A DNA stretch of 64,000 nucleotides from NCBI GenBank assembly GCA_045580835.1, contig JAZNOM010000091.1, positions 1,552 through 65,551 on the forward strand, given 5' to 3'. Each line of letters opens with the position of its first letter. Position 1 is the first letter of the stretch. Under the pieces are notes generated by a model, which saw nothing but the letters and a program-made list of their open reading frames with translations, searched no databases and was not told where the DNA came from. Both the position numbers and the translations under genes were made by a program. The stretch comes from Eubacteriales bacterium. GTDB lineage: Bacteria; Bacillota; Clostridia; Oscillospirales; CAG-272. Positions 7,679-16,658 of this stretch are shown in pieces.

Positions 7679-8557
7679 TCAACCAAGGAGATATGCATCT
7701 ATACCTCTTTTGATTATTTCTTCAAGTGTGTCGTTAAGATAGAAGTTTAGCTCGGTATCAAGCAGTTCATTTTCCACTCCGCGATATGCTTTTTTGCCAA
7801 GGCGCACATGAATCAGGTCAACGCTTATCTCCACAATACGGGCTTCATCGTTTTCGCCCACCTCGCATATCCCTGCCAATACAGTATATCTGTACCCTTC
7901 GTTTGGGCGCGACGTGCTAGTTATTTTACTTGTTGTATATAAATACTTTGTACGTATCTCAAGATTATATAGCGCAGCGCGTTCTGTATACGGTGCAATT
8001 ATCTCGCGCACCTTTGCGCGAACCTCGCGCTCCATTGGTACGATTTCATCGGTAAGGTGCGCCTTTATCTCACGGTTTTCTTTTTCATTGCGGCGGTGCC
8101 ACCACTTTTTTATACCCTCGCCGAAATAGCCTGTCACTTCACCGTCCCAATATCTTTCGATGTATCGCTTCGTGCGGCGCGTTTTACGTATAAATCCCTC
8201 CATGTAAAAACGCGGTTTCCCCTCGGGAACACCGTCAATTTGAAAAAACGGAAATATTATGTCTAAACGGTGAAGATAGCCATGGTAAGTTTCTACTTCA
8301 ACAGAACGGATATTTTTCCATAAATATCTGTTTTTCGGTGCAAACAGATAATATATACTTACGCCTTCACTGTCAAAAATGTACCCGCACGGAGTTGTTA
8401 TACAACTGAAAACGACAAGAGCTACCGCAATTACAAGCATAACAATAACGCCGCCTATATCATTTTCATCAAAGAAAACATCAGCGCAAAATATGCTGAA
8501 TGCTACGGCAAGTATATATGCTACAAACATTCGGTCTATGGCAAAATGTTTTTTCAT
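7679..8557 (-). CDS. Hypothetical membrane protein (two N-terminal TM helices, possible PH-like domain)
   Basis: ~292-aa ORF with its own promoter TTGACA-N17-TATCAT (~8589-8617). No recognised family. Confidence 0.65.
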   Translation of the reverse strand: MKKHFAIDRMFVAYILAVAFSIFCADVFFDENDIGGVIVMLVIAVALVVFSCITTPCGYIFDSEGVSIYYLFAPKNRYLWKNIRSVEVETYHGYLHRLDIIFPFFQIDGVPEGKPRFYMEGFIRKTRRTKRYIERYWDGEVTGYFGEGIKKWWHRRNEKENREIKAHLTDEIVPMEREVRAKVREIIAPYTERAALYNLEIRTKYLYTTSKITSTSRPNEGYRYTVLAGICEVGENDEARIVEISVDLIHVRLGKKAYRGVENELLDTELNFYLNDTLEEIIKRGIDAYLLG

Positions 8558-8665
8558 GATATCACCCACTCGATATACTGTTGTATATATGATAGCAGAT
8601 TATTCTTTCTTTGTCAATAACGATAAACGGTGGTAGGGGACGGCACCAGCGGTGGTGGGATACGC

Positions 8666-8693
8666 AAAAAGAGAGCCTTTCGGCTCTCTTTTT
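8666..8693 (-). terminator. Terminator of ECF-LRR operon
   Basis: AAAAAGAGAGCC-TTTC-GGCTCTCTTTTT. Confidence 0.75.
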
Positions 8694-11200
8694 TAACCTA
8701 TATATTCAACATTTAAGCCCTGTGCCTTAGCATGTGACTCAACATAAGTGCCTGCAGCACATTTTACTGCGGCAAGCTTGTCACAACCCGAGAAAATATA
8801 GTTACCCACAGTGGGGTTGCCGTATACAGTAACCTCGGTAAGCTCATAGCAGGAACGGAATGCATAATCGCCGATGCTTGTAATTCCTTCATGCAATACA
8901 ATTTTTTCAAGTGCGGTAGCCTGCATAAAGAAATAAGCAGGAATTTCAGTTACGCTTTCGGGCACTGTGTATGAAACAAGCAGTAATGGGAAGGCAACAA
9001 GTTTGGTCATATCCTTATTGTACACAACACCGTTTTCGTCAGTTGTAAAATACTTGTTTTCCGCATCAACGGTGATAGTTTCAAGCTTGCTGCATTCATG
9101 GAATACAAGCTCGCCTATTTCCATTACGTTTTTAGGGAAATTAAACTCCGAATAACCGCTTGTAGCAAAGGCGTAAGTTTCGATAACCTTTACGCTTTCG
9201 GGAATTTCAACGCTTGTAAGTAAAGGCATGTTTGCAAAAGCATGCTCCTTAATAACCTCAACACCGTTTGAAATAACAAGACTTTCTACTGAGTGGCAGA
9301 ATTTAAACGCGCTTGACGAAACAACCTTGACGCTGCTTGGGATAACAATGCTCTTCAGAGCTTCGCAAGAATAAAACGCCATCTCACCGATATGCGTTAC
9401 GCTCTCGGGAATGTTGATACTCTCTACATTGTAGCATGAGCTGAAAGCGCTCTTACCGATATACTCTACGCCCTCGGGAAGCGTAATGCTTTTAACAAAT
9501 TTATGATGATAAAACGCCTCTTCGCCGATAGCGCGCACGGGATAGCCTTCAAGAGTGTCGGGAACAACGATGTCGCTATCAGAACCGTAATAGTCAAGAA
9601 TCATTATCTTGCCATTTGCAACGCCTATTCTGAAGTCGCCGCTTGTAAGCTCGTTTTCAAACTTTACGTCGTCCCAAACGGTAACTTCGGGAACGATAAC
9701 CTCGGGTTCGCTCGCGTCGGTATCCTCAGAGGTAGAAAGCCTTTCGATATACTTCACCGCGATGCCGTGCGCATTTGCATATTCCTCTGCGGCGGTGCTT
9801 GCAGGACACTTGATATATTCAAGGTCATAGCAGCCGTCAAATGATTTTTCCTCAATGCTTATAACATTTTCGTGAATTTCGATACTCTTAAGTCGGAAAT
9901 GGCCGCCAAAAACGCCTTTGGTGATTGCAACAACGGGATAGCCGTCGATTTCAAGCGGAACAACCGCCTCTGTTTCGTCGGTAATGCCTACATAGTTATA
10001 GTCAACGAGAGTTGCCTTGCCGTCTTCGACTGTATACGAATACTTGCCGACACGGAAACCGGGAGATTTTAATGAAGTTCCCTGCCCCTCAAAAATTTCC
10101 GGATACTTCATAAATCTCGAATACTCCCAGCCGCTTGGATAAACGTCCCCATTTTGCACGTCAATAATCGGACAATCGGTATTTGTGGAATACACATTGA
10201 ACTCGTGACGGATTTCGCTTAAGATCTCATCTTCGTTTTCGGATACTGCTTGATCCGCATTATATTCATTCTTTGCAAACATCTTTACATTGCCGTTTTC
10301 GTCAAGTGAAAAGATGTTGTAGTAGAAAAGCGGCGAGCCCTGTCTGTAATAAAAACCTGCACAAAGGATATATTCGTCAAGATTTTCGGTATAGAGATTG
10401 TAATAGCAAAGCCCGTTTGTGGTGCTGTCGGAATAGCCCTCATAGATAAGCTTTGGTGTACCCTTATCAAGAGTGTACACATCAAACTCGCACGCGTAGC
10501 CGTCCTGCTTTACCGCAAACATCTCAACATAACCGTCATGCGTTACATCGGCAAAGGAGTAAAATGTGCCGTCATTCTGGTCAAATTTTGACACAAAAAC
10601 GCCCATTACCTCACCGTTGGTCATCTTTTGCGAGCCAACTGCGGCAAAAACATCGCCGCCGACAATATCAAAATATGCTTCATTGACAGTCATGCCGAAA
10701 TATGCATTTGAATCAATGTTAAACTGCGCAATACGCTGACCGTTTTTGTGAGTCAGCGAGAAAAGAGTCACCGGCAGGTCCGCGCTTGTAACGGCTATCG
10801 GCTCACCGTCGGCAGGAAGCCAGTTTTCGACTGTAAAATAGTACACGTCTGCACCGTCGGCAGTCTGCTTTTCCCACTTACCTGCATATGTAATCATTCC
10901 ATAATACAAGTTGCAGTAAAAGGTAAATGTTCCGTCATCATAAACATTGATTTCGGGAACATATGCGCTGTTGTTAACGCCAAGTCCGTAAATCTCATTT
11001 TGCAAAAGTCTAATCAAAAGCTCCTTTTCGGGCTTTGTTTCAACTACCGTAGTTGTTTCTTCTGCAGTTACCTCTGTTTCTTCCGTTGTAACTACCTCTT
11101 CGGTCGTTTCTTCATCATCCCAATTGACATCGCCGTTATCGCAAGCAACAAATGCAAGACAAAGAAGTGCCGCAAGCAATATACTTAAAAATTTCTTCAT
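8693..11200 (-). CDS. Lipoprotein with T/E-rich stalk and BspA-type leucine-rich repeats (LRR_5)
   Basis: Start MKKFLSILLAALLCLAFVA-C (lipobox) with AAGGAG RBS. Repeats such as SITLPEGVEYIGKSAFSSC and SINIPESVTHIGEMAFYSC. Confidence 0.85.
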   Translation of the reverse strand: MKKFLSILLAALLCLAFVACDNGDVNWDDEETTEEVVTTEETEVTAEETTTVVETKPEKELLIRLLQNEIYGLGVNNSAYVPEINVYDDGTFTFYCNLYYGMITYAGKWEKQTADGADVYYFTVENWLPADGEPIAVTSADLPVTLFSLTHKNGQRIAQFNIDSNAYFGMTVNEAYFDIVGGDVFAAVGSQKMTNGEVMGVFVSKFDQNDGTFYSFADVTHDGYVEMFAVKQDGYACEFDVYTLDKGTPKLIYEGYSDSTTNGLCYYNLYTENLDEYILCAGFYYRQGSPLFYYNIFSLDENGNVKMFAKNEYNADQAVSENEDEILSEIRHEFNVYSTNTDCPIIDVQNGDVYPSGWEYSRFMKYPEIFEGQGTSLKSPGFRVGKYSYTVEDGKATLVDYNYVGITDETEAVVPLEIDGYPVVAITKGVFGGHFRLKSIEIHENVISIEEKSFDGCYDLEYIKCPASTAAEEYANAHGIAVKYIERLSTSEDTDASEPEVIVPEVTVWDDVKFENELTSGDFRIGVANGKIMILDYYGSDSDIVVPDTLEGYPVRAIGEEAFYHHKFVKSITLPEGVEYIGKSAFSSCYNVESINIPESVTHIGEMAFYSCEALKSIVIPSSVKVVSSSAFKFCHSVESLVISNGVEVIKEHAFANMPLLTSVEIPESVKVIETYAFATSGYSEFNFPKNVMEIGELVFHECSKLETITVDAENKYFTTDENGVVYNKDMTKLVAFPLLLVSYTVPESVTEIPAYFFMQATALEKIVLHEGITSIGDYAFRSCYELTEVTVYGNPTVGNYIFSGCDKLAAVKCAAGTYVESHAKAQGLNVEYIG

Positions 11201-11210
11201 GCTTTTCTCC

Positions 11211-13835
11211 TTACTTGATAATTTCATATGCAACGTTATTCTCTTTAGCGTAACTCTCGGTATACGAGCCCTCACGGCACTTAATGCCCTCAAAGTTATA
11301 ACCAACGGTAAATGCCTGCTCGCCGATTACCTTTACACTGTCAGGCAGTTCAACACTTTCAAGGTTGTCACACCATAAAAAAGCATTTTCACCGATTTCG
11401 GTGACACCGTTTGGAACAACGATATTTTTGATGCTGTCGCACTCTGCAAATGCGCCGCCTCTTATCTTGGTTACGCCGGACGGAATTGTAAATTCGCTCG
11501 TATTGTAAGGCACATAGATAAGTTCAGAAGAATCCCTCGTATAAAGCGCGCCTTGGTCATCAAGTTTAAAGTTTCCGCCAAGCTCCAATTCAAGCTTGAG
11601 TTCATAGCAAGCCACAAACGGCGACATCTCACCGATGCTTTCTACGCTCTTGGGTATTGTAAATCTTTCAAGCGACTCGCAGTAGCAAAAAGCACTTGCA
11701 CCGATATGTTTTACTCCGTTTGGAAGTACAATTTCTTTTAAGCTATCACATTTACCAAACGCGCCATCGCCGATGCGCTCAAGCTTTTTTGGAAGAGATA
11801 TGTTTTCAAGCGAATAGCACTCATAAAACGCGCCGTCGCCGATGCTTGTAACGCCGTTTGGAATTTCAACATTTACAAGCAAGTCGCAATCGCTGAAAAG
11901 CTCGTTTGAAATTTCGGTAATTCCGCTCGGAAGTTTAACACTTTTAAGACCGTAGCACTCGCTGAACGCGCCCTCGTCAATAAAGGTTACGCTTTCGGGG
12001 ATTGAAATACTTTCAAGTGCATTGCAGCCGTTAAACGCGCCTGAGCCGATACTTTCAAGAGAGTTTGGAAGAGTGATATCTGCTAAAGCTTCACAATCCC
12101 AGAACACAGACGACTCTATGGATTTAATGCCGTTTGGCATCTCAATACCTTCAAGCTTTTCACACCATGCAAATGCGCTGTGTTCGATTTCCTTCAAACT
12201 GTTTGGCAGGTCAATGCTCTTTAAATTTCCGCAATGCTTAAACGCCTGAACACCAATTCTTTCAATGCCTTCGGGAACGATAACGCTTTCAAAGTCAGAG
12301 TACGCAAGTCCGACGTACTGCACGTTATTTTCATAGTCCCATACGCTGTCGATTGCAGTAACCTTGTAGCCGTCAATCTCACTCGGAATTACAACGTTTA
12401 CACCGTAGCCGATATAATCGGCGATTGTCGCTTCATTGCCCTGCGTTGCGATTATATAGTCGCCGCTTGTGATAAAGGCGTCATATTCGGATGCTAAATC
12501 TACCTCTTCGCCGTCGTGGAAATAGCTGTTAAATGAATCAAGCGAAACGTTTACAATATCGTCACCCTGATACATAAAGGAAATCTGATAATCAACCTCT
12601 TCATTTGTGTAAAGCTCGAAATTATGCTCACCCTCGCTTGAATGCACAAGCTCAAAGCCGTTCTTTTCAAGAATATCGCGCGCCTCTTTGACAGAGCTGC
12701 TTATATTCAAACCCATGCAGTTTACAACCTCGCCGAGAATCTGAATGCTATAAACCGTCTGGTCGCCGTTTTCATCGGTTATATACTGAAAAATTATATA
12801 ATCGTACTTGTCGCCGTACCTAAACTTATAGCTGATGTACTCCTCGCCTGGCTCATAAGATTCTTTTTCATATCCATCGCCAAAGCAAGCGATAACCTCT
12901 TCGAGCGGCATATCAACAAATACGCCAAGGTCAACCTTTGCGTAAGCAGCTGCCGTGTCACTGTCAAGCGCTGCATACTCATTTGCAAAATCGTTTGAAG
13001 GCTTGTCACCCTTAACTGCATTTGAAATGCCAAAGCCTGCGCCAACAGCTACGGCAACCGCAACTGCGCCCGCAACAGCCTTTGCTGCTATCGGCATTGC
13101 CGCAATTTTTGCAAGAATTCCGCCGCTTGCTGCCGTTGTAGCAGCCGCGGTAGCAGCACCTGCTGCACTTGCGGTAACGCTTGTAAGAATAGCCGCCGAC
13201 GCCGCACTTGAAAGCGAATAATCCTCTGCCACCTTTTGCAAAATGAGTCCGAGAACGGGGATAGCATGCAGCTTTGTTCCCTTCTTTTCCAAATCTTCCA
13301 CCTGCTCTTTTATCTGCCGTCTGGCATAATTCAAACGACTTTTAACGGTGTTTTCGCTGACCTGCAAAAGCTCGGCAATGCGTGAAACAGGAAGCTCGTT
13401 GTAGTAATAAAGAATCACCGCAACACGCTGCGCATCGGGAAGAGAGTCTACAATTGCCATGATAAGACGGCATGTTTCTTTGTTATCGGCATATGCATGC
13501 GGGATAAAATCCTCGTCAAGCTCGGGGAGATTTAAAAGCATTTCATCTGCTTCATCTGTGCCGAGCGCCGAAGGCTTGTGCGATGCAAGATAGTTTTTGC
13601 AAACATTTACGGTAATCTGACGAAGCCAGCCGATAAACGCCTCCGGCACCTTAAGCGTGCCGAGTTTTTCAATTGCTTTGATGTACACATCCTGCACGAT
13701 ATCCTCGGCTGCGGTTTCGTTACCGGTAATTTTCAGTGCGTTGAAGTATACCATCTTCTGCGTCTGTTCAAAAAGGACTGCAAATGCCTTTGTATCTCCC
13801 TTTTGTGCTTTGATTACTACATCTTTAAGTTCCAT
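11211..13835 (-). CDS. ECF sigma factor fused to a TM helix and an extracellular BspA-type LRR domain
   Basis: Sigma r2 AEDIVQDVYIKA...FIGWLRQITVN and r4 LPDAQRVAVILYYY...IAELLQVSENTVKSRLNYAR. These are followed by an Ala-rich linker, the TM AVAGAVAVAVAVGAGFGI, and about a dozen LRR_5 units. GGAGG RBS before ATG 13835. Confidence 0.9.
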   Translation of the reverse strand: MELKDVVIKAQKGDTKAFAVLFEQTQKMVYFNALKITGNETAAEDIVQDVYIKAIEKLGTLKVPEAFIGWLRQITVNVCKNYLASHKPSALGTDEADEMLLNLPELDEDFIPHAYADNKETCRLIMAIVDSLPDAQRVAVILYYYNELPVSRIAELLQVSENTVKSRLNYARRQIKEQVEDLEKKGTKLHAIPVLGLILQKVAEDYSLSSAASAAILTSVTASAAGAATAAATTAASGGILAKIAAMPIAAKAVAGAVAVAVAVGAGFGISNAVKGDKPSNDFANEYAALDSDTAAAYAKVDLGVFVDMPLEEVIACFGDGYEKESYEPGEEYISYKFRYGDKYDYIIFQYITDENGDQTVYSIQILGEVVNCMGLNISSSVKEARDILEKNGFELVHSSEGEHNFELYTNEEVDYQISFMYQGDDIVNVSLDSFNSYFHDGEEVDLASEYDAFITSGDYIIATQGNEATIADYIGYGVNVVIPSEIDGYKVTAIDSVWDYENNVQYVGLAYSDFESVIVPEGIERIGVQAFKHCGNLKSIDLPNSLKEIEHSAFAWCEKLEGIEMPNGIKSIESSVFWDCEALADITLPNSLESIGSGAFNGCNALESISIPESVTFIDEGAFSECYGLKSVKLPSGITEISNELFSDCDLLVNVEIPNGVTSIGDGAFYECYSLENISLPKKLERIGDGAFGKCDSLKEIVLPNGVKHIGASAFCYCESLERFTIPKSVESIGEMSPFVACYELKLELELGGNFKLDDQGALYTRDSSELIYVPYNTSEFTIPSGVTKIRGGAFAECDSIKNIVVPNGVTEIGENAFLWCDNLESVELPDSVKVIGEQAFTVGYNFEGIKCREGSYTESYAKENNVAYEIIK

Positions 13836-13868
13836 TTTCAACCTCCAAAAGTCGTTTTCTATTAACAA

Positions 13869-13895
13869 AGACAAATAAAAAATGCTTTAGGTTTT
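13869..13895 (-). promoter_or_regulatory. Putative ECF-type (autoregulatory) promoter
   Basis: Minus strand AAACC-N16-TGTCT about 35 nt upstream of the ATG, downstream of a terminator. It resembles the AAC/(C/T)GT ECF pattern. Confidence 0.55.
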
Positions 13896-13919
13896 ATAAT
13901 TTTAAAATTTTTCAAAAAA

Positions 13920-13947
13920 TTTATCTGCATGTAGCCATGCAGATAAA
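13920..13947 (-). terminator. Terminator after FAD oxidoreductase
   Basis: TTTATCTGCATG-TAGC-CATGCAGATAAA. Confidence 0.6.
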
Positions 13948-13952
13948 TCTGA

Positions 13953-15134
13953 TTATAATTTTTCGTCAAAATGTATGCGGAAATTGTTTTTGCGGAGTAT
14001 CCCCTGCAAAGTCGGCACATCCACCTTGCGCGCCGCTATATTTTCATCAATAGCGAGTACCGCCGCGCGTGCCGCGACCTCGCCCGTTTGGCATGCAACG
14101 GGGATTACTCTTGTTGCATCCCATGCGCCGCCGTGCGCAGAAATTACTCTGCCCGCGGCAAACATATTGGTATATTCGGGGGAATAGAGCGTGCCGTAAG
14201 GGATTTCAAACCAATATCCCTTTTTGCCAAAATAAGGACAAGTTCCGACAGAATCCGCGTGGGGCTTGTAAAGGTCATCCATGGTCATCTCATACTCGCC
14301 CACGATATGGCGAATCATTCGGAACTGCGGCATCATCGGCAGTGCAACGATTTCCTGCGCACACGGCTCATTTTGCTTGATTTCATCAAGCAAAAGCTGT
14401 TGACCTTTAATAATATAGTTGTTTACCTCGTCACCTGTAACACCGGCATAATGCGGGAAGCCCTCAGGGTGTCCCTTGCCCGTCATACCGCTGCCGCTTA
14501 CGTGCCAGCCGCGCACCTTAAGCATGTTGTACTCCTTGTTCGGTGCAAAGTCAACGATATGAGAATAGTAGGACATATAGTTTTCACCGTCGCGGCATTC
14601 TGCGCCTGCGCGGCTGAACATTATGCAGTTGCCGCTTGCATCAATCAGTGCGCGACAGGAGTAAAACTCGGTACCGCCTACCGTTTCAACTGCAACGCCC
14701 TTTACGGTTTTGCCGTCCATCTCGGGATATGTAACAAGCGCGTCATAGCGAATATCCGCGCCCGCTTCAAGCAGCATTTCCTGCAAAACGAGTGACATTA
14801 CGGTTGGAGAAAAGTGAGTTACAAATCTATCCGCGGTGTCCTGCTCCCACACTCCCTCTTTTTGCCAACATTCGGGCAAGCGATGCATGCAGTATCTGAT
14901 AGTTCTGCGGAGTATTTCCTCGGAAATACCGGAAATAAGCTTTTTGCCCTCGGCATTGCAAAGCGGCTCCCACCAGTTGATAAGACCTATAGTCGCAAGA
15001 CCGCCAAGCGCCGCCGCCTTTTCAAGCAGAAGTGTCTTTTTGCCTGCGCGTGCCGCCGCAACGGCTGCAGCCACACCTGCAACACCGCCGCCGACAACCA
15101 CTATGTCATAATCCTTTTTTAAAACATAATTCAT
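13953..15134 (-). CDS. FAD-dependent oxidoreductase
   Basis: DIVVVGGGVAG...LLLEK...LGGLAT, IDASG, IPYGTL, AAGRVIS and QTGEVAA. Confidence 0.88.
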   Translation of the reverse strand: MNYVLKKDYDIVVVGGGVAGVAAAVAAARAGKKTLLLEKAAALGGLATIGLINWWEPLCNAEGKKLISGISEEILRRTIRYCMHRLPECWQKEGVWEQDTADRFVTHFSPTVMSLVLQEMLLEAGADIRYDALVTYPEMDGKTVKGVAVETVGGTEFYSCRALIDASGNCIMFSRAGAECRDGENYMSYYSHIVDFAPNKEYNMLKVRGWHVSGSGMTGKGHPEGFPHYAGVTGDEVNNYIIKGQQLLLDEIKQNEPCAQEIVALPMMPQFRMIRHIVGEYEMTMDDLYKPHADSVGTCPYFGKKGYWFEIPYGTLYSPEYTNMFAAGRVISAHGGAWDATRVIPVACQTGEVAARAAVLAIDENIAARKVDVPTLQGILRKNNFRIHFDEKL

Positions 15135-15136
15135 AA

Positions 15137-16585
15137 TTACTTCTCCGTCGGAACAAAGTTAAAAACTATCATTGAGCGCATATGGTAATAACGGTAACGA
15201 AGTCCGTATGACGTTGAGTTTTCGAATAAAACATCATCGCCCTCTGCACGCACCTGACCTGCTGAATCGTATATCTTAAAGCGATATTTTTCAGGATTTG
15301 TTTCGTCAGGATTTACACACTCGGTAACAACGATATGGTGCGAGCCGTTGTAGGAATTCTCCATAGAAACGATAACCCCTTCGGGATGCTCGTCAAGCGC
15401 TTCCTTGAGTTTCTTTTTGGTTACACCGTAGGTACGCACCGCCTCAAGCGGCTGACCGTACAGAGTAAATGACTCGGCTATTTGCTTGATGTTTATCATA
15501 ATCGGATTGTTATAAAGCGTGCCCTTGGACGAGGTAAGTCCGCGATTGCCCGAGTTTGCAAGCGCAACCGTATACGGGTCAGCCTCAAGATTTCCATCCG
15601 CCTCAAAGCGGAAATCATAGCCGCCCTCATAGCGCGCGCCGAGGTTATGCAACACCATTGCAACCGAAGTCAACGCACAGCCGGTATCCATCCAGTCGAG
15701 TCCGCGGTTATAGCCGTTAATGATAAAACGCTTGTGTGAACCCGAATAGAAATACACGTTGGCAAGCTCGCCGCCGTGCCAGCCGCCCTTTGTAGCAAGA
15801 TGCTGCGAATACCATGTAAAGGCATCCTCGTCAACGATTTTCACATCAATGCTTCGGCTTTCATCACCTATAGTAGCGGTGACAGTTACGGTGCCTGCTT
15901 TAAGCGCGCAAAAACTGCCGTCATCATCAATCATAAGCATGGTATCATCGCTCGACGACCACTTTGCAAGACCTGCCATATAAGCAGGCTTTGTAACCGC
16001 GTATACGGAGCTTACACCGTAAAGTTTTACCTCATCGGCAACGGTTTTAAGTTCAAAAGAAGAAAGCGCAACGGGAGAAATATCCCAAAGCTGACTGGAC
16101 GCGCCGCCATATTCCTCGCCTTCTACAAGAGTCATTCTGTAAAGCGTACTGCGGTTGGTTGTTCCGAGAACAACTTCACCGCTTGAAATCACATAACCGC
16201 CTTCTGTGCCGCTGATTTTAAAACAAGAGTTATCGCCGATTTCAGCCGACTTTGAAACACGCTCGCCGATTGTACTTTGCATGCAAAACGCATATTCGCC
16301 CGCCTCGCTTTGCGGATATAAAAGATATGTACCGTCATCCTGCTTGACAAGAAGAATATTTTCGCCCTCCTCGCCGTTTTGCATATCGGTATATGCAAAA
16401 CCGCCTGCGGCATATTTTCTGTCAAAAGCATTCAGATACTCTCCGCTCGCTATGTTTTTAATTGTGTAAACGCCGCTTGCAGGCCCCTCTCCCACAGGAA
16501 TAGAAACCTCTGTATCCGCCGCGATGCCAAACGAAAGGCATAAAAGCAACAGAATCGCAGCTAATAAAAAAATATATTTTTTCAA
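15137..16585 (-). CDS. Secreted protein: ricin-like lectin domain + Ig-like (Big_2) + C39-like cysteine peptidase
   Basis: Signal peptide from TTG 16585. GVYTIKNIASGEYL...SQLW (ricin), WSSSD...AGTVTVTATI (Big_2), and WYSQH...GCALTSVAM...SHHIVV...IYDS (C39-like Q/C/H/D). Confidence 0.7.
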   Translation of the reverse strand: MKKYIFLLAAILLLLCLSFGIAADTEVSIPVGEGPASGVYTIKNIASGEYLNAFDRKYAAGGFAYTDMQNGEEGENILLVKQDDGTYLLYPQSEAGEYAFCMQSTIGERVSKSAEIGDNSCFKISGTEGGYVISSGEVVLGTTNRSTLYRMTLVEGEEYGGASSQLWDISPVALSSFELKTVADEVKLYGVSSVYAVTKPAYMAGLAKWSSSDDTMLMIDDDGSFCALKAGTVTVTATIGDESRSIDVKIVDEDAFTWYSQHLATKGGWHGGELANVYFYSGSHKRFIINGYNRGLDWMDTGCALTSVAMVLHNLGARYEGGYDFRFEADGNLEADPYTVALANSGNRGLTSSKGTLYNNPIMINIKQIAESFTLYGQPLEAVRTYGVTKKKLKEALDEHPEGVIVSMENSYNGSHHIVVTECVNPDETNPEKYRFKIYDSAGQVRAEGDDVLFENSTSYGLRYRYYHMRSMIVFNFVPTEK

Positions 16586-16658
16586 AGATTTATCCTCGCA
16601 TAAAAAAATACCCATAGTTACAAAACCATGGGTATTTTATCATATTAATATATAAATG

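Follow-up and report, generated by a model that had tools for sequence, protein, structure and literature searches.

The 64,000-nucleotide stretch of contig JAZNOM010000091.1 examined here (the window, to whose first letter all positions below are counted) comes from an uncultured ruminant-gut Clostridia bacterium, represented by a metagenome bin of 143 contigs that is 89% complete. It carries, on the minus strand, a two-gene operon encoding an 874-residue sigma factor with a membrane helix and a leucine-rich-repeat (LRR) ectodomain (P0001), followed by an 835-residue LRR lipoprotein (P0002). By sequence comparison, P0001 belongs to an order-wide family in which an extracytoplasmic function (ECF) sigma factor is joined through a transmembrane helix to a variable ectodomain, and in which no anti-sigma domain is recognisable. 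We propose that the operon encodes a membrane-tethered sigma factor with an LRR sensor split over two proteins, which would be freed by cleavage and would then activate its own operon. We regard the case for and against this proposal as evenly balanced.

A sigma factor, a membrane helix and a leucine-rich-repeat ectodomain in one polypeptide

The gene for P0001 and the parts of its product are laid out as follows.

11211-13835, minus strand: P0001 gene (sigma, transmembrane helix, LRR; 874 amino acids), with an ATG start and the ribosome-binding site GGAGG at 13842-13846, 6 nucleotides upstream.
13305-13775, minus strand: ECF sigma core, region 2 (residues 21-87) and region 4 (residues 124-177), from Pfam, NCBIfam and PDB alignments.
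13221-13289, minus strand: tail after sigma region 4, residues 183-205, E..EKKGTKLH and then an amphipathic stretch with a conserved Pro, from the family alignment.
13122-13220, minus strand: low-complexity Ala/Thr/Ser/Gly linker, residues 206-238, from composition.
13011-13121, minus strand: juxtamembrane motif GGILAKIAAMPIAAK and predicted single Ala/Val/Gly-rich transmembrane helix, residues ~239-275, from hydropathy and conservation.
12516-12968, minus strand: juxtamembrane ectodomain, residues ~290-440, from alignment; common to a narrow subfamily.
11214-12470, minus strand: BspA-type LRR_5 ectodomain, residues 456-874, with the C-terminal cap YAKENNV, from Pfam and BLASTP to P0002.

The N-terminal part of P0001 is recognised by Pfam as Sigma70_r2 (residues 21-87, E 9e-11) and Sigma70_r4_2 (residues 124-174, E 8e-13), scores 89.6 bits against a cut-off of 42.9 with the sigma70-ECF model TIGR02937, and aligns end to end, over residues 3-182, with the solved sigma factors SigW (5wuq, E 5.5e-17) and sigma-E. 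Pfam detects regions 2 and 4 but neither region 1 nor region 3, which is the make-up of a Group 4 (ECF) sigma factor. None of the NCBIfam equivalog models reaches its cut-off with P0001, the best being PRK12513 (102.9 against 206). Residues D45, Q48, W70, K165, S166 and R167 are invariant across 80 family members, which argues for a working sigma factor; the core is under purifying selection and is predicted to be a functional ECF-type sigma factor. The tail that follows region 4, in which E183, K188 and L189 are conserved in at least 90% of the 80 sequences, is a signature of the family. The linker of P0001 measures 36 residues up to the first hydrophobic window (81% Ala/Thr/Ser/Gly), and region 4 and the helix are separated by only about 70 residues in all, about half of them of low complexity. 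In this interval neither a FecR_N domain nor a zinc-finger ZAS domain was matched by Pfam or NCBIfam in P0001, nor in 10 relatives at E values up to 5. Pfam also recognised no anti-sigma domain anywhere in P0001 or in the flanking open reading frame at 7679-8569, in line with the earlier statement that the locus has no separate anti-sigma gene.

P0001 has one hydrophobic region, at residues ~244-275, with a Kyte-Doolittle peak of 2.03; its position is conserved in the family, and K252 of the juxtamembrane motif is conserved in at least 90% of the 80 sequences. The topology of P0001 and P0002 is given throughout as derived from hydropathy and conservation. On these grounds P0001 is predicted to be a single polypeptide with one membrane span and an extracytoplasmic C-terminal part. 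The juxtamembrane ectodomain has no credible Pfam match (E up to 5) and no hit among PDB sequences, and phmmer returned only 3 hits for it among 1.84 billion representatives; the Atlas leads are weak (at most 0.80), one of them being DUF4309/YjgB at 0.79. The remainder of the protein is matched by LRR_5 (PF13306) in 3 stretches (E 1.7e-88, 293 bits against a cut-off of 27.7). A reading of the locus made from the sequence alone (the sequence-only reading) had described complete ECF regions 2 and 4, an Ala/Thr-rich linker, a single Ala/Val/Gly helix and a large C-terminal BspA-type LRR in this protein, and the profiles, PDB alignments, composition and hydropathy bear out each of these parts.

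The source genome is a fragmented metagenome bin, which favours the explanation that the fusion is an assembly or frameshift artefact joining a sigma gene to an LRR gene. Contigs from four public runs were compared with positions 8600-13960 of the window. In run X1, a bovine gut metagenome, a 9326-nucleotide contig spans 8600-13308 at about 97% identity and connects the lipoprotein gene with all parts of P0001 from the LRR, over the juxtamembrane domain, helix and linker, to the end of sigma region 4; it differs by 136 substitutions and a single in-frame 9-nucleotide insertion in the Thr/Glu-rich linker of P0002, and has no frame-breaking insertion or deletion. A second contig spans 13279-13960. 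The X1 contig reads through the junction of the sigma and LRR parts, and therefore the objection that a stop or frameshift separates them, which the sequence-only reading had raised against itself, fails. Full-length orthologues from other assemblies (P0003, 81% identity; P0004, 73%) read through the junction too and have the same length and order of parts, and dozens of diverged family members share the design. The artefact explanation is refuted by the orthologues and the X1 contig, and we give it a negligible probability.

An order-wide family with exchangeable ectodomains

A homologue search returned 190 proteins at E 0.001, and the counts of composition given here refer to the best 120 of these 190. 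Sigma domains with an extension are found in 110 (~480-1100 amino acids in total length) and 10 are LRR-only proteins. LRR_5 occurs in 17 of the 110 sigma fusions, the others carrying Big_2, RCC1 or nothing recognised. A hydrophobic segment follows sigma region 4 in 109 of the 110 at a threshold of 1.6; among the 100 fusions with a recognised sigma-4 pattern, a window of at least 1.9 is present in 94 (median start at residue 264) and an EKKGxKL-like tail in 93. The linker is variable in length, with a median of 52 residues, and consists to 75% of Ala, Thr, Ser and Gly. The elements stand in a fixed order in the family alignments: the end of sigma region 4, TVKSRLNYAR..IK..VE..EKKGTKL(H/Y), leads into an amphipathic stretch with a conserved Pro and then into the variable linker, after which come G.xAKIAAxPLxxK and the (I/V)(I/V)AG..A.AV..GGG helix. 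The hydrophobic segment and its flanking motif are fixed in position, while the ectodomains vary.

With residues 1-455 of P0001 as query and alignments required to run through the helix, members were detected in 22 of 401 genomes, which represent 20 of 178 genera and 10 of the 30 families of the order. P0001 is the sole long sigma fusion among the 10 sigma-70-type genes of its own genome. The domain-architecture search that had been suggested together with the original observation thus finds the design recurring in relatives, and the idea that a one-polypeptide arrangement is unusual in Clostridia has to be given up. In nine relatives from the same bacterial family that were scanned (class A), LRR_5 ectodomains are found in L026, L028 and L029; L027 precedes a gene for a 1305-residue LRR_5 protein, and one relative has a lipase domain, so that LRR_5 recurs with these sigma factors. 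A literature search brought up nothing on this Clostridia family or its tail motif and no account of sigma-LRR_5 fusions; the supplement of the ECF classification (PMC7826278), covered only partly, may list a matching group.

An origin of the fusion from a neighbouring sigma factor and zinc-finger anti-sigma pair was considered and rejected: the stand-alone ECF sigma factors of the same bacterial family, which have classical zinc-finger anti-sigma partners, are without the EKKGTKL tail and are 30-39% identical.

The constancy of the N-terminal part also bears on the idea that the sigma domain is a relic, or an anchor, on a surface LRR adhesin, or that P0001 is cytoplasmic throughout, with its hydrophobic stretch serving as a soluble low-complexity linker. 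In favour of such readings, the helix is only moderately hydrophobic by hydropathy (Ala/Val/Gly; peak 2.03). They are opposed by the invariant sigma residues of 80 diverged members, by the full-length alignments to solved ECF sigma factors, by the fixed position of the hydrophobic segment and its flanking motif, and by the presence of a paralogous LRR, alongside the N-half modules, on a protein with a signal peptide and a lipobox (P0002). We consider them very improbable.

The lipoprotein and the split ectodomain

The second gene of the operon is composed as follows.

8693-11200, minus strand: P0002 gene (LRR_5 lipoprotein, 835 amino acids), with AAGGAG upstream of its start.
10061-11026, minus strand: N-half of P0002, residues 59-380, with modules YxPxIxVYxDGTFxF... 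and FADVTHDG... after a Thr/Glu-rich linker, from homology to fusion ectodomains.
8696-10060, minus strand: two LRR_5 blocks, residues 381-490 and 518-835, each with a terminal cap motif, from Pfam and BLASTP.

The signal peptide of a bacterial lipoprotein ends in a lipobox with an invariant Cys. P0002 begins with MKKFLSILLAALLCLAFVAC, a signal peptide that ends in LAFVAC and is the only hydrophobic segment of the protein by hydropathy. Orthologues stand at 97, 86, 78 and 68% identity, and four retain the lipobox as L[AV]LVAC; both a signal peptide and a lipobox with its Cys are therefore present in P0002, judged by the motif and by orthologue conservation. Pfam matches P0002 to LRR_5 (PF13306) in 4 stretches (E 4e-63, 211 bits against a cut-off of 27.7) and to no other family, leaving the N-half modules without a Pfam match. 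The LRR parts of P0001 and P0002 are paralogous (27% identity, E 2e-41), and BLASTP aligns their cap motifs YAKENNV, YANAHGI and HAKAQGL. Pfam, lipobox and BLASTP agree in this with the earlier description of a lipoprotein with two LRR blocks and a shared capping motif.

The Thr/Glu-rich linker (stalk) of P0002 is polymorphic in length: at window positions 11072-11075, in-frame 9-nucleotide insertions that differ from each other are present in strains of two public runs.

Of the 19 genomes of the genus, only two others, G404 and G409 (locus L013), encode a protein closely related to P0001. The G404 gene is syntenic, lying downstream of the same flavin adenine dinucleotide (FAD) oxidoreductase and Big_2-protein genes, and encodes a single 793-residue protein with the sigma factor, the helix, the juxtamembrane domain, a Glu/Thr/Pro-rich linker and two modules like those of the P0002 N-half; its residues 505-740 match residues 56-303 of P0002 (E 1e-20). 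No lipoprotein gene follows the sigma fusion at the G404 locus. The G409 protein is 57-59% identical to P0001 over residues 45-475, and further modules, including a part like the P0002 N-half (E 9e-28), replace the LRR. In a small local database, the P0002 N-half matches the distal ectodomains of 10 sigma fusions (E 3e-29 to 1e-7). The syntenic, one-piece G404 gene with the modules of the P0002 N-half is decisive: P0001 and P0002 represent a split and rearranged ancestral ectodomain. The sigma-bound half acquired an LRR_5 block, and the distal half turned into the lipoprotein, keeping the acidic linker and gaining two LRR_5 blocks.

The two genes also occur as a pair in at least three further assemblies. 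The pair is bridged by the X1 contig; P0124, the 86% orthologue of P0002, and P0003 both come from a 7946-nucleotide contig, and P0125, the 78% orthologue, and P0004 both come from a 12794-nucleotide contig, co-location being deduced in both cases from equal size. Divergence is even along both P0001 and P0002. The pairing of sensor and lipoprotein that the sequence-only reading put forward is upheld by this recurrence and by the inclusion of the lipoprotein N-half in the fusion ectodomain of G404. By gene-fusion logic, the comparison supports a joint function of P0001 and P0002. This support does not extend to physical binding of the two ectodomains.

The lipoprotein could act jointly with the sensor as a co-receptor, or it could be the output of the system. 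RsgI anti-sigma factors share their carbohydrate-binding modules with the enzymes under their control, and by the same logic P0002 would be a surface adhesin regulated by a sensor with the same binding module. The arrangement of the two genes in one operon with a 10-nucleotide gap, the paralogy of their LRR parts, and the candidate promoter found in genome G065 directly before a large LRR_5 gene adjoining a sigma-transmembrane fusion are all in agreement with an output role. The N-half of the lipoprotein belongs, however, to the sensor's own ectodomain in sister genomes, which by gene-fusion logic indicates parts that act together. We find an output role somewhat doubtful; it is compatible with our main explanation and differs from it only in the part given to the lipoprotein.

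Operon boundaries and the candidate promoter

Three further features delimit the operon and may control it.

8666-8693, minus strand: intrinsic terminator hairpin and U-run at the end of the operon (-18.7 kcal/mol, z -6.1).
13917-13950, minus strand: intrinsic terminator hairpin and U-run after the upstream FAD-oxidoreductase gene (-19.5 kcal/mol, z -6.3).
13869-13895, minus strand: candidate ECF-type promoter, AAAACC (13895-13890), N16, TGTCT (13873-13869), from sequence and conservation in G404.

The stop of P0001 and the P0002 gene are exactly 10 nucleotides apart. Both flanking hairpins were missed by a consensus scanner and were detected by folding energy against shuffled sequences. For the hairpin at 13917-13950, none of 200 shuffles folds as well, and it recurs in the corresponding spacer of G404; this hairpin insulates the operon on the 5' side. 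The gene downstream of P0002 (7679-8569) has its own strong sigma-A promoter at 8617-8589. The two-gene layout with its short gap and its terminators on both sides, as first read, is reproduced by the open reading frame calls and by hairpin folding. All items of the original observation have been located in the sequence, and the observation is therefore confirmed.

A consensus scan scored no sigma-70-type promoter upstream of P0001 on the minus strand. The two boxes of the candidate ECF-type promoter, ATAAAACCT and TTGTCTTT, are identical in the G404 spacer and their spacing is kept, while 9 of the 16 intervening positions differ. In G065, AAAACC-N16-CGTCTTATTAAT stands just after the terminator of a sigma fusion, 183 nucleotides before an LRR_5 gene, and the sigma-4.2 helices are alike in the P0001, G404 and G065 proteins. 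All in all, there is fair comparative support for the motif as an ECF-type promoter in the P0001 subfamily.

The G065 locus consists of a sigma-transmembrane fusion with an unassigned ectodomain, a sigma-A-type promoter and its own terminator (L027:1498-3984) and, after this terminator and the motif AAAACC-N16-CGTCT, the gene for a 1305-residue secreted LRR_5 protein (L027:4255-8172). The fusion and the LRR_5 gene are possibly a sensor and target pair in another genus.

Proposed mechanism

We propose a series of linked steps for the action of the operon. The ECF sigma factor would be held at the membrane by the flexible Ala/Thr-rich linker and the single helix, and would be inactive there. The LRR part, perhaps jointly with the lipoprotein, would sense a ligand or surface contact, and this event in the ectodomain would lead to cleavage by a site-2 protease within or near the Gly/Ala-rich helix, freeing the sigma factor. 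The freed sigma factor would direct RNA polymerase to AAAACC-N16-YGTCT promoters, including the one before its own operon, and activation of the operon would raise both the sensor and the LRR lipoprotein.

The main rival to this proposal is action while tethered, because no anti-sigma domain is present. Membrane-integrated one-component regulators such as ToxR and CadC exist, and in the same manner the sigma factor would work uncut in the membrane, its long linker reaching RNA polymerase and nearby DNA, with the ectodomain modulating it by clustering or conformation. The absence of a domain to hold the sigma factor inactive favours this rival, as do the linkers of the family, which are of low complexity, variable and long (median 52 residues, 75% Ala/Thr/Ser/Gly), and the helix, which is rich in Ala/Gly small-xxx-small motifs. 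On the other hand, site-2 proteases prefer Gly-rich, helix-destabilised membrane segments, and the helix of P0001 is of this type. Cleavage is also how the tested sigma fusions are activated, IutY being the example (PMC8999054). We hold action in the tethered state to be unlikely.

Several results weigh against release by cleavage followed by activation of the operon. Without an anti-sigma domain, the roughly 50-70-residue linker could let the sigma factor work while tethered. Genes for M50 site-2 proteases are present in the genome, but in a control search 14 of 14 genomes were matched, so that M50 is universal. The other class-A loci examined lack a paired lipoprotein, and a downstream secreted partner is not otherwise conserved. 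The exact promoter motif has 3 hits in the own genome, which is chance level; the other two hits have no open reading frame of at least 100 amino acids starting within 250 nucleotides downstream, and no hit lies before another LRR_5 gene of this genome. A more specific pattern is matched 12 times in 401 genomes, fewer than the 17 matches of the reversed control, and besides those in the own genome, in G065 and possibly before one G329 lipoprotein gene, the 12 hits are in coding or unrelated sequence. A loose version of the motif, AAC[CT]-N15-17-[CT]GTC, occurs within 220 nucleotides upstream in only 5 of 27 relatives, against 0 and 1 in the controls, and in four of these five it lies 170-211 nucleotides away. 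Clear sigma-A promoters were seen by eye in five (L026-L030) of nine relatives' upstream regions. The ECF-like promoter of the sequence-only reading therefore stands in so far as its boxes are conserved in the G404 spacer and a like motif occurs in G065, and falls short in its chance frequency genome-wide. Most of the relatives examined lie behind sigma-A promoters and are without a paired lipoprotein; neither autoregulation nor a co-receptor is therefore the rule across the family.

The conserved elements around the linker invite a further suggestion, which we regard as speculative and improbable. The EKKGxKL tail, the amphipathic helix and the AKIAAxPLxxK-helix motif might together form a new, built-in inhibition-and-release module of a distinct anti-sigma-free class; in the present genome, the split halves would have to reassemble on the surface, sense a host or particle ligand via LRR_5 and switch on LRR adhesin genes.

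Neighbouring genes and related loci

The gene at 7679-8569 (minus strand) encodes a 296-residue protein behind a near-consensus sigma-A promoter (TTGACA, 17 nucleotides, TG-TATCAT). No Pfam family was matched to it, and hydrophobic stretches seen by eye at its N-terminus could be membrane segments. At 15137-16615 (minus strand) lies the gene for a 492-residue secreted protein that matches ricin-B-lectin and Big_2 weakly and has Cys in its C-terminal part; this gene and the FAD oxidoreductase gene are both kept upstream of the sigma fusion in G404.

Among other loci, L025:1-3591 (G076) encodes a sigma-transmembrane fusion with a roughly 900-residue outside part that includes a class-3 lipase domain. 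L021, L022 and L024 share the element CATCC(C/A)ATGCC....GGGCA ~60-90 nucleotides upstream of their sigma fusion genes, which can form a hairpin and may be the terminator of the preceding gene or a regulatory element. A second class of long fusions is very common in the same bacterial family (L032, L034-L040, e.g. L037:1495-4665 and L038:1491-4130). Its members measure ~860-1090 amino acids, have an ECF-like sigma start MY..DETLVMLTLAGEQ.. and no hydrophobic segment, and Pfam gave a weak DUF3108_like match in the extension of both members on which it was run. They are predicted to be soluble sigma factors with roughly 700-900-residue extensions.

Relation to known systems

ECF sigma factors with C-terminal extensions form the second most common regulatory type, with 19 groups (PMC7826278), and extensions with membrane helices are described for ECF263, ECF57, ECF52/53/48 and ECF243 (PMC7826278, PMC8999054). 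The operon adds an anti-sigma-free LRR_5 version to this already recognised kind of ECF sigma factor with a transmembrane C-terminal extension. The closest mechanistic example is provided by IutY of Pseudomonas putida (ECF243), for which regulated intramembrane proteolysis, with processing by Prc and then RseP, has been demonstrated (PMC8999054, PMC5411451). Like P0001, IutY is one polypeptide with an N-terminal ECF sigma factor, a single span and an extracytoplasmic C-terminal part; unlike P0001, it has a FecR-type anti-sigma domain between the sigma factor and the membrane and receives its signals from an outer-membrane TonB receptor, whereas P0001, from a Gram-positive lineage, has an LRR_5 ectodomain and is without a recognisable anti-sigma domain.

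A proteolytic activation model has been proposed for ECF52-type sigma factors (PMC8999054). The ECF52, ECF53 and ECF48 proteins of Actinobacteria (e.g. SCO4117 of Streptomyces coelicolor) resemble P0001 in their long extension with 1-2 helices and an outside binding domain, but their extension starts with a zinc-finger anti-sigma domain and their outside part is Pro-rich and carbohydrate-binding (PMC8999054); P0001 has no zinc finger, and its conserved tail and juxtamembrane motifs are different. ECF57 and related planctomycete sigma factors, known from genomic classification only, share with P0001 a large extension, membrane helices and repeat domains, yet have about two helices, WD40-type repeats and a conserved Cys pair in sigma-2/sigma-4, and belong to another phylum (PMC7826278). 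In our comparison of P0001 with ECF57-type proteins, no sequence relation was seen beyond the ECF core.

The SigI-RsgI systems of cellulolytic clostridia are likewise found in Clostridia, and the outside module of RsgI is of the same kind as those of the surface proteins that are regulated. Their activation proceeds by juxtamembrane cleavage and then by RseP. They differ from P0001 in consisting of two proteins, with a separate RsgI that carries RsgI_N and SEAL domains, and in that SigI is not of the ECF type; no Pfam family of the RsgI_N/SEAL type was found in P0001 or P0002, so that by Pfam the operon does not match a SigI-RsgI system. Both ectodomains match LRR_5 far above the cut-off, as BspA-type proteins do. 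The known BspA-type LRR_5 members are adhesins or surface proteins, from which P0001 differs by its fusion to a sigma factor.

Among the known fusions, which carry an anti-sigma domain, IutY alone has a mechanism that has been demonstrated. The present locus directs attention to a large protein family of gut and rumen Clostridia that is without such a domain, that has its own conserved tail and juxtamembrane motif, and that exchanges its outside modules freely, even within one genus. Comparison within the genus amounts to a natural experiment, with a one-piece sensor in one species and a sigma-bound part and a lipoprotein part in the other, and this makes control of the sigma factor by the outside part directly testable. 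The locus also links a regulator to the BspA-type LRR surface proteins, which occur in large numbers in gut anaerobes.

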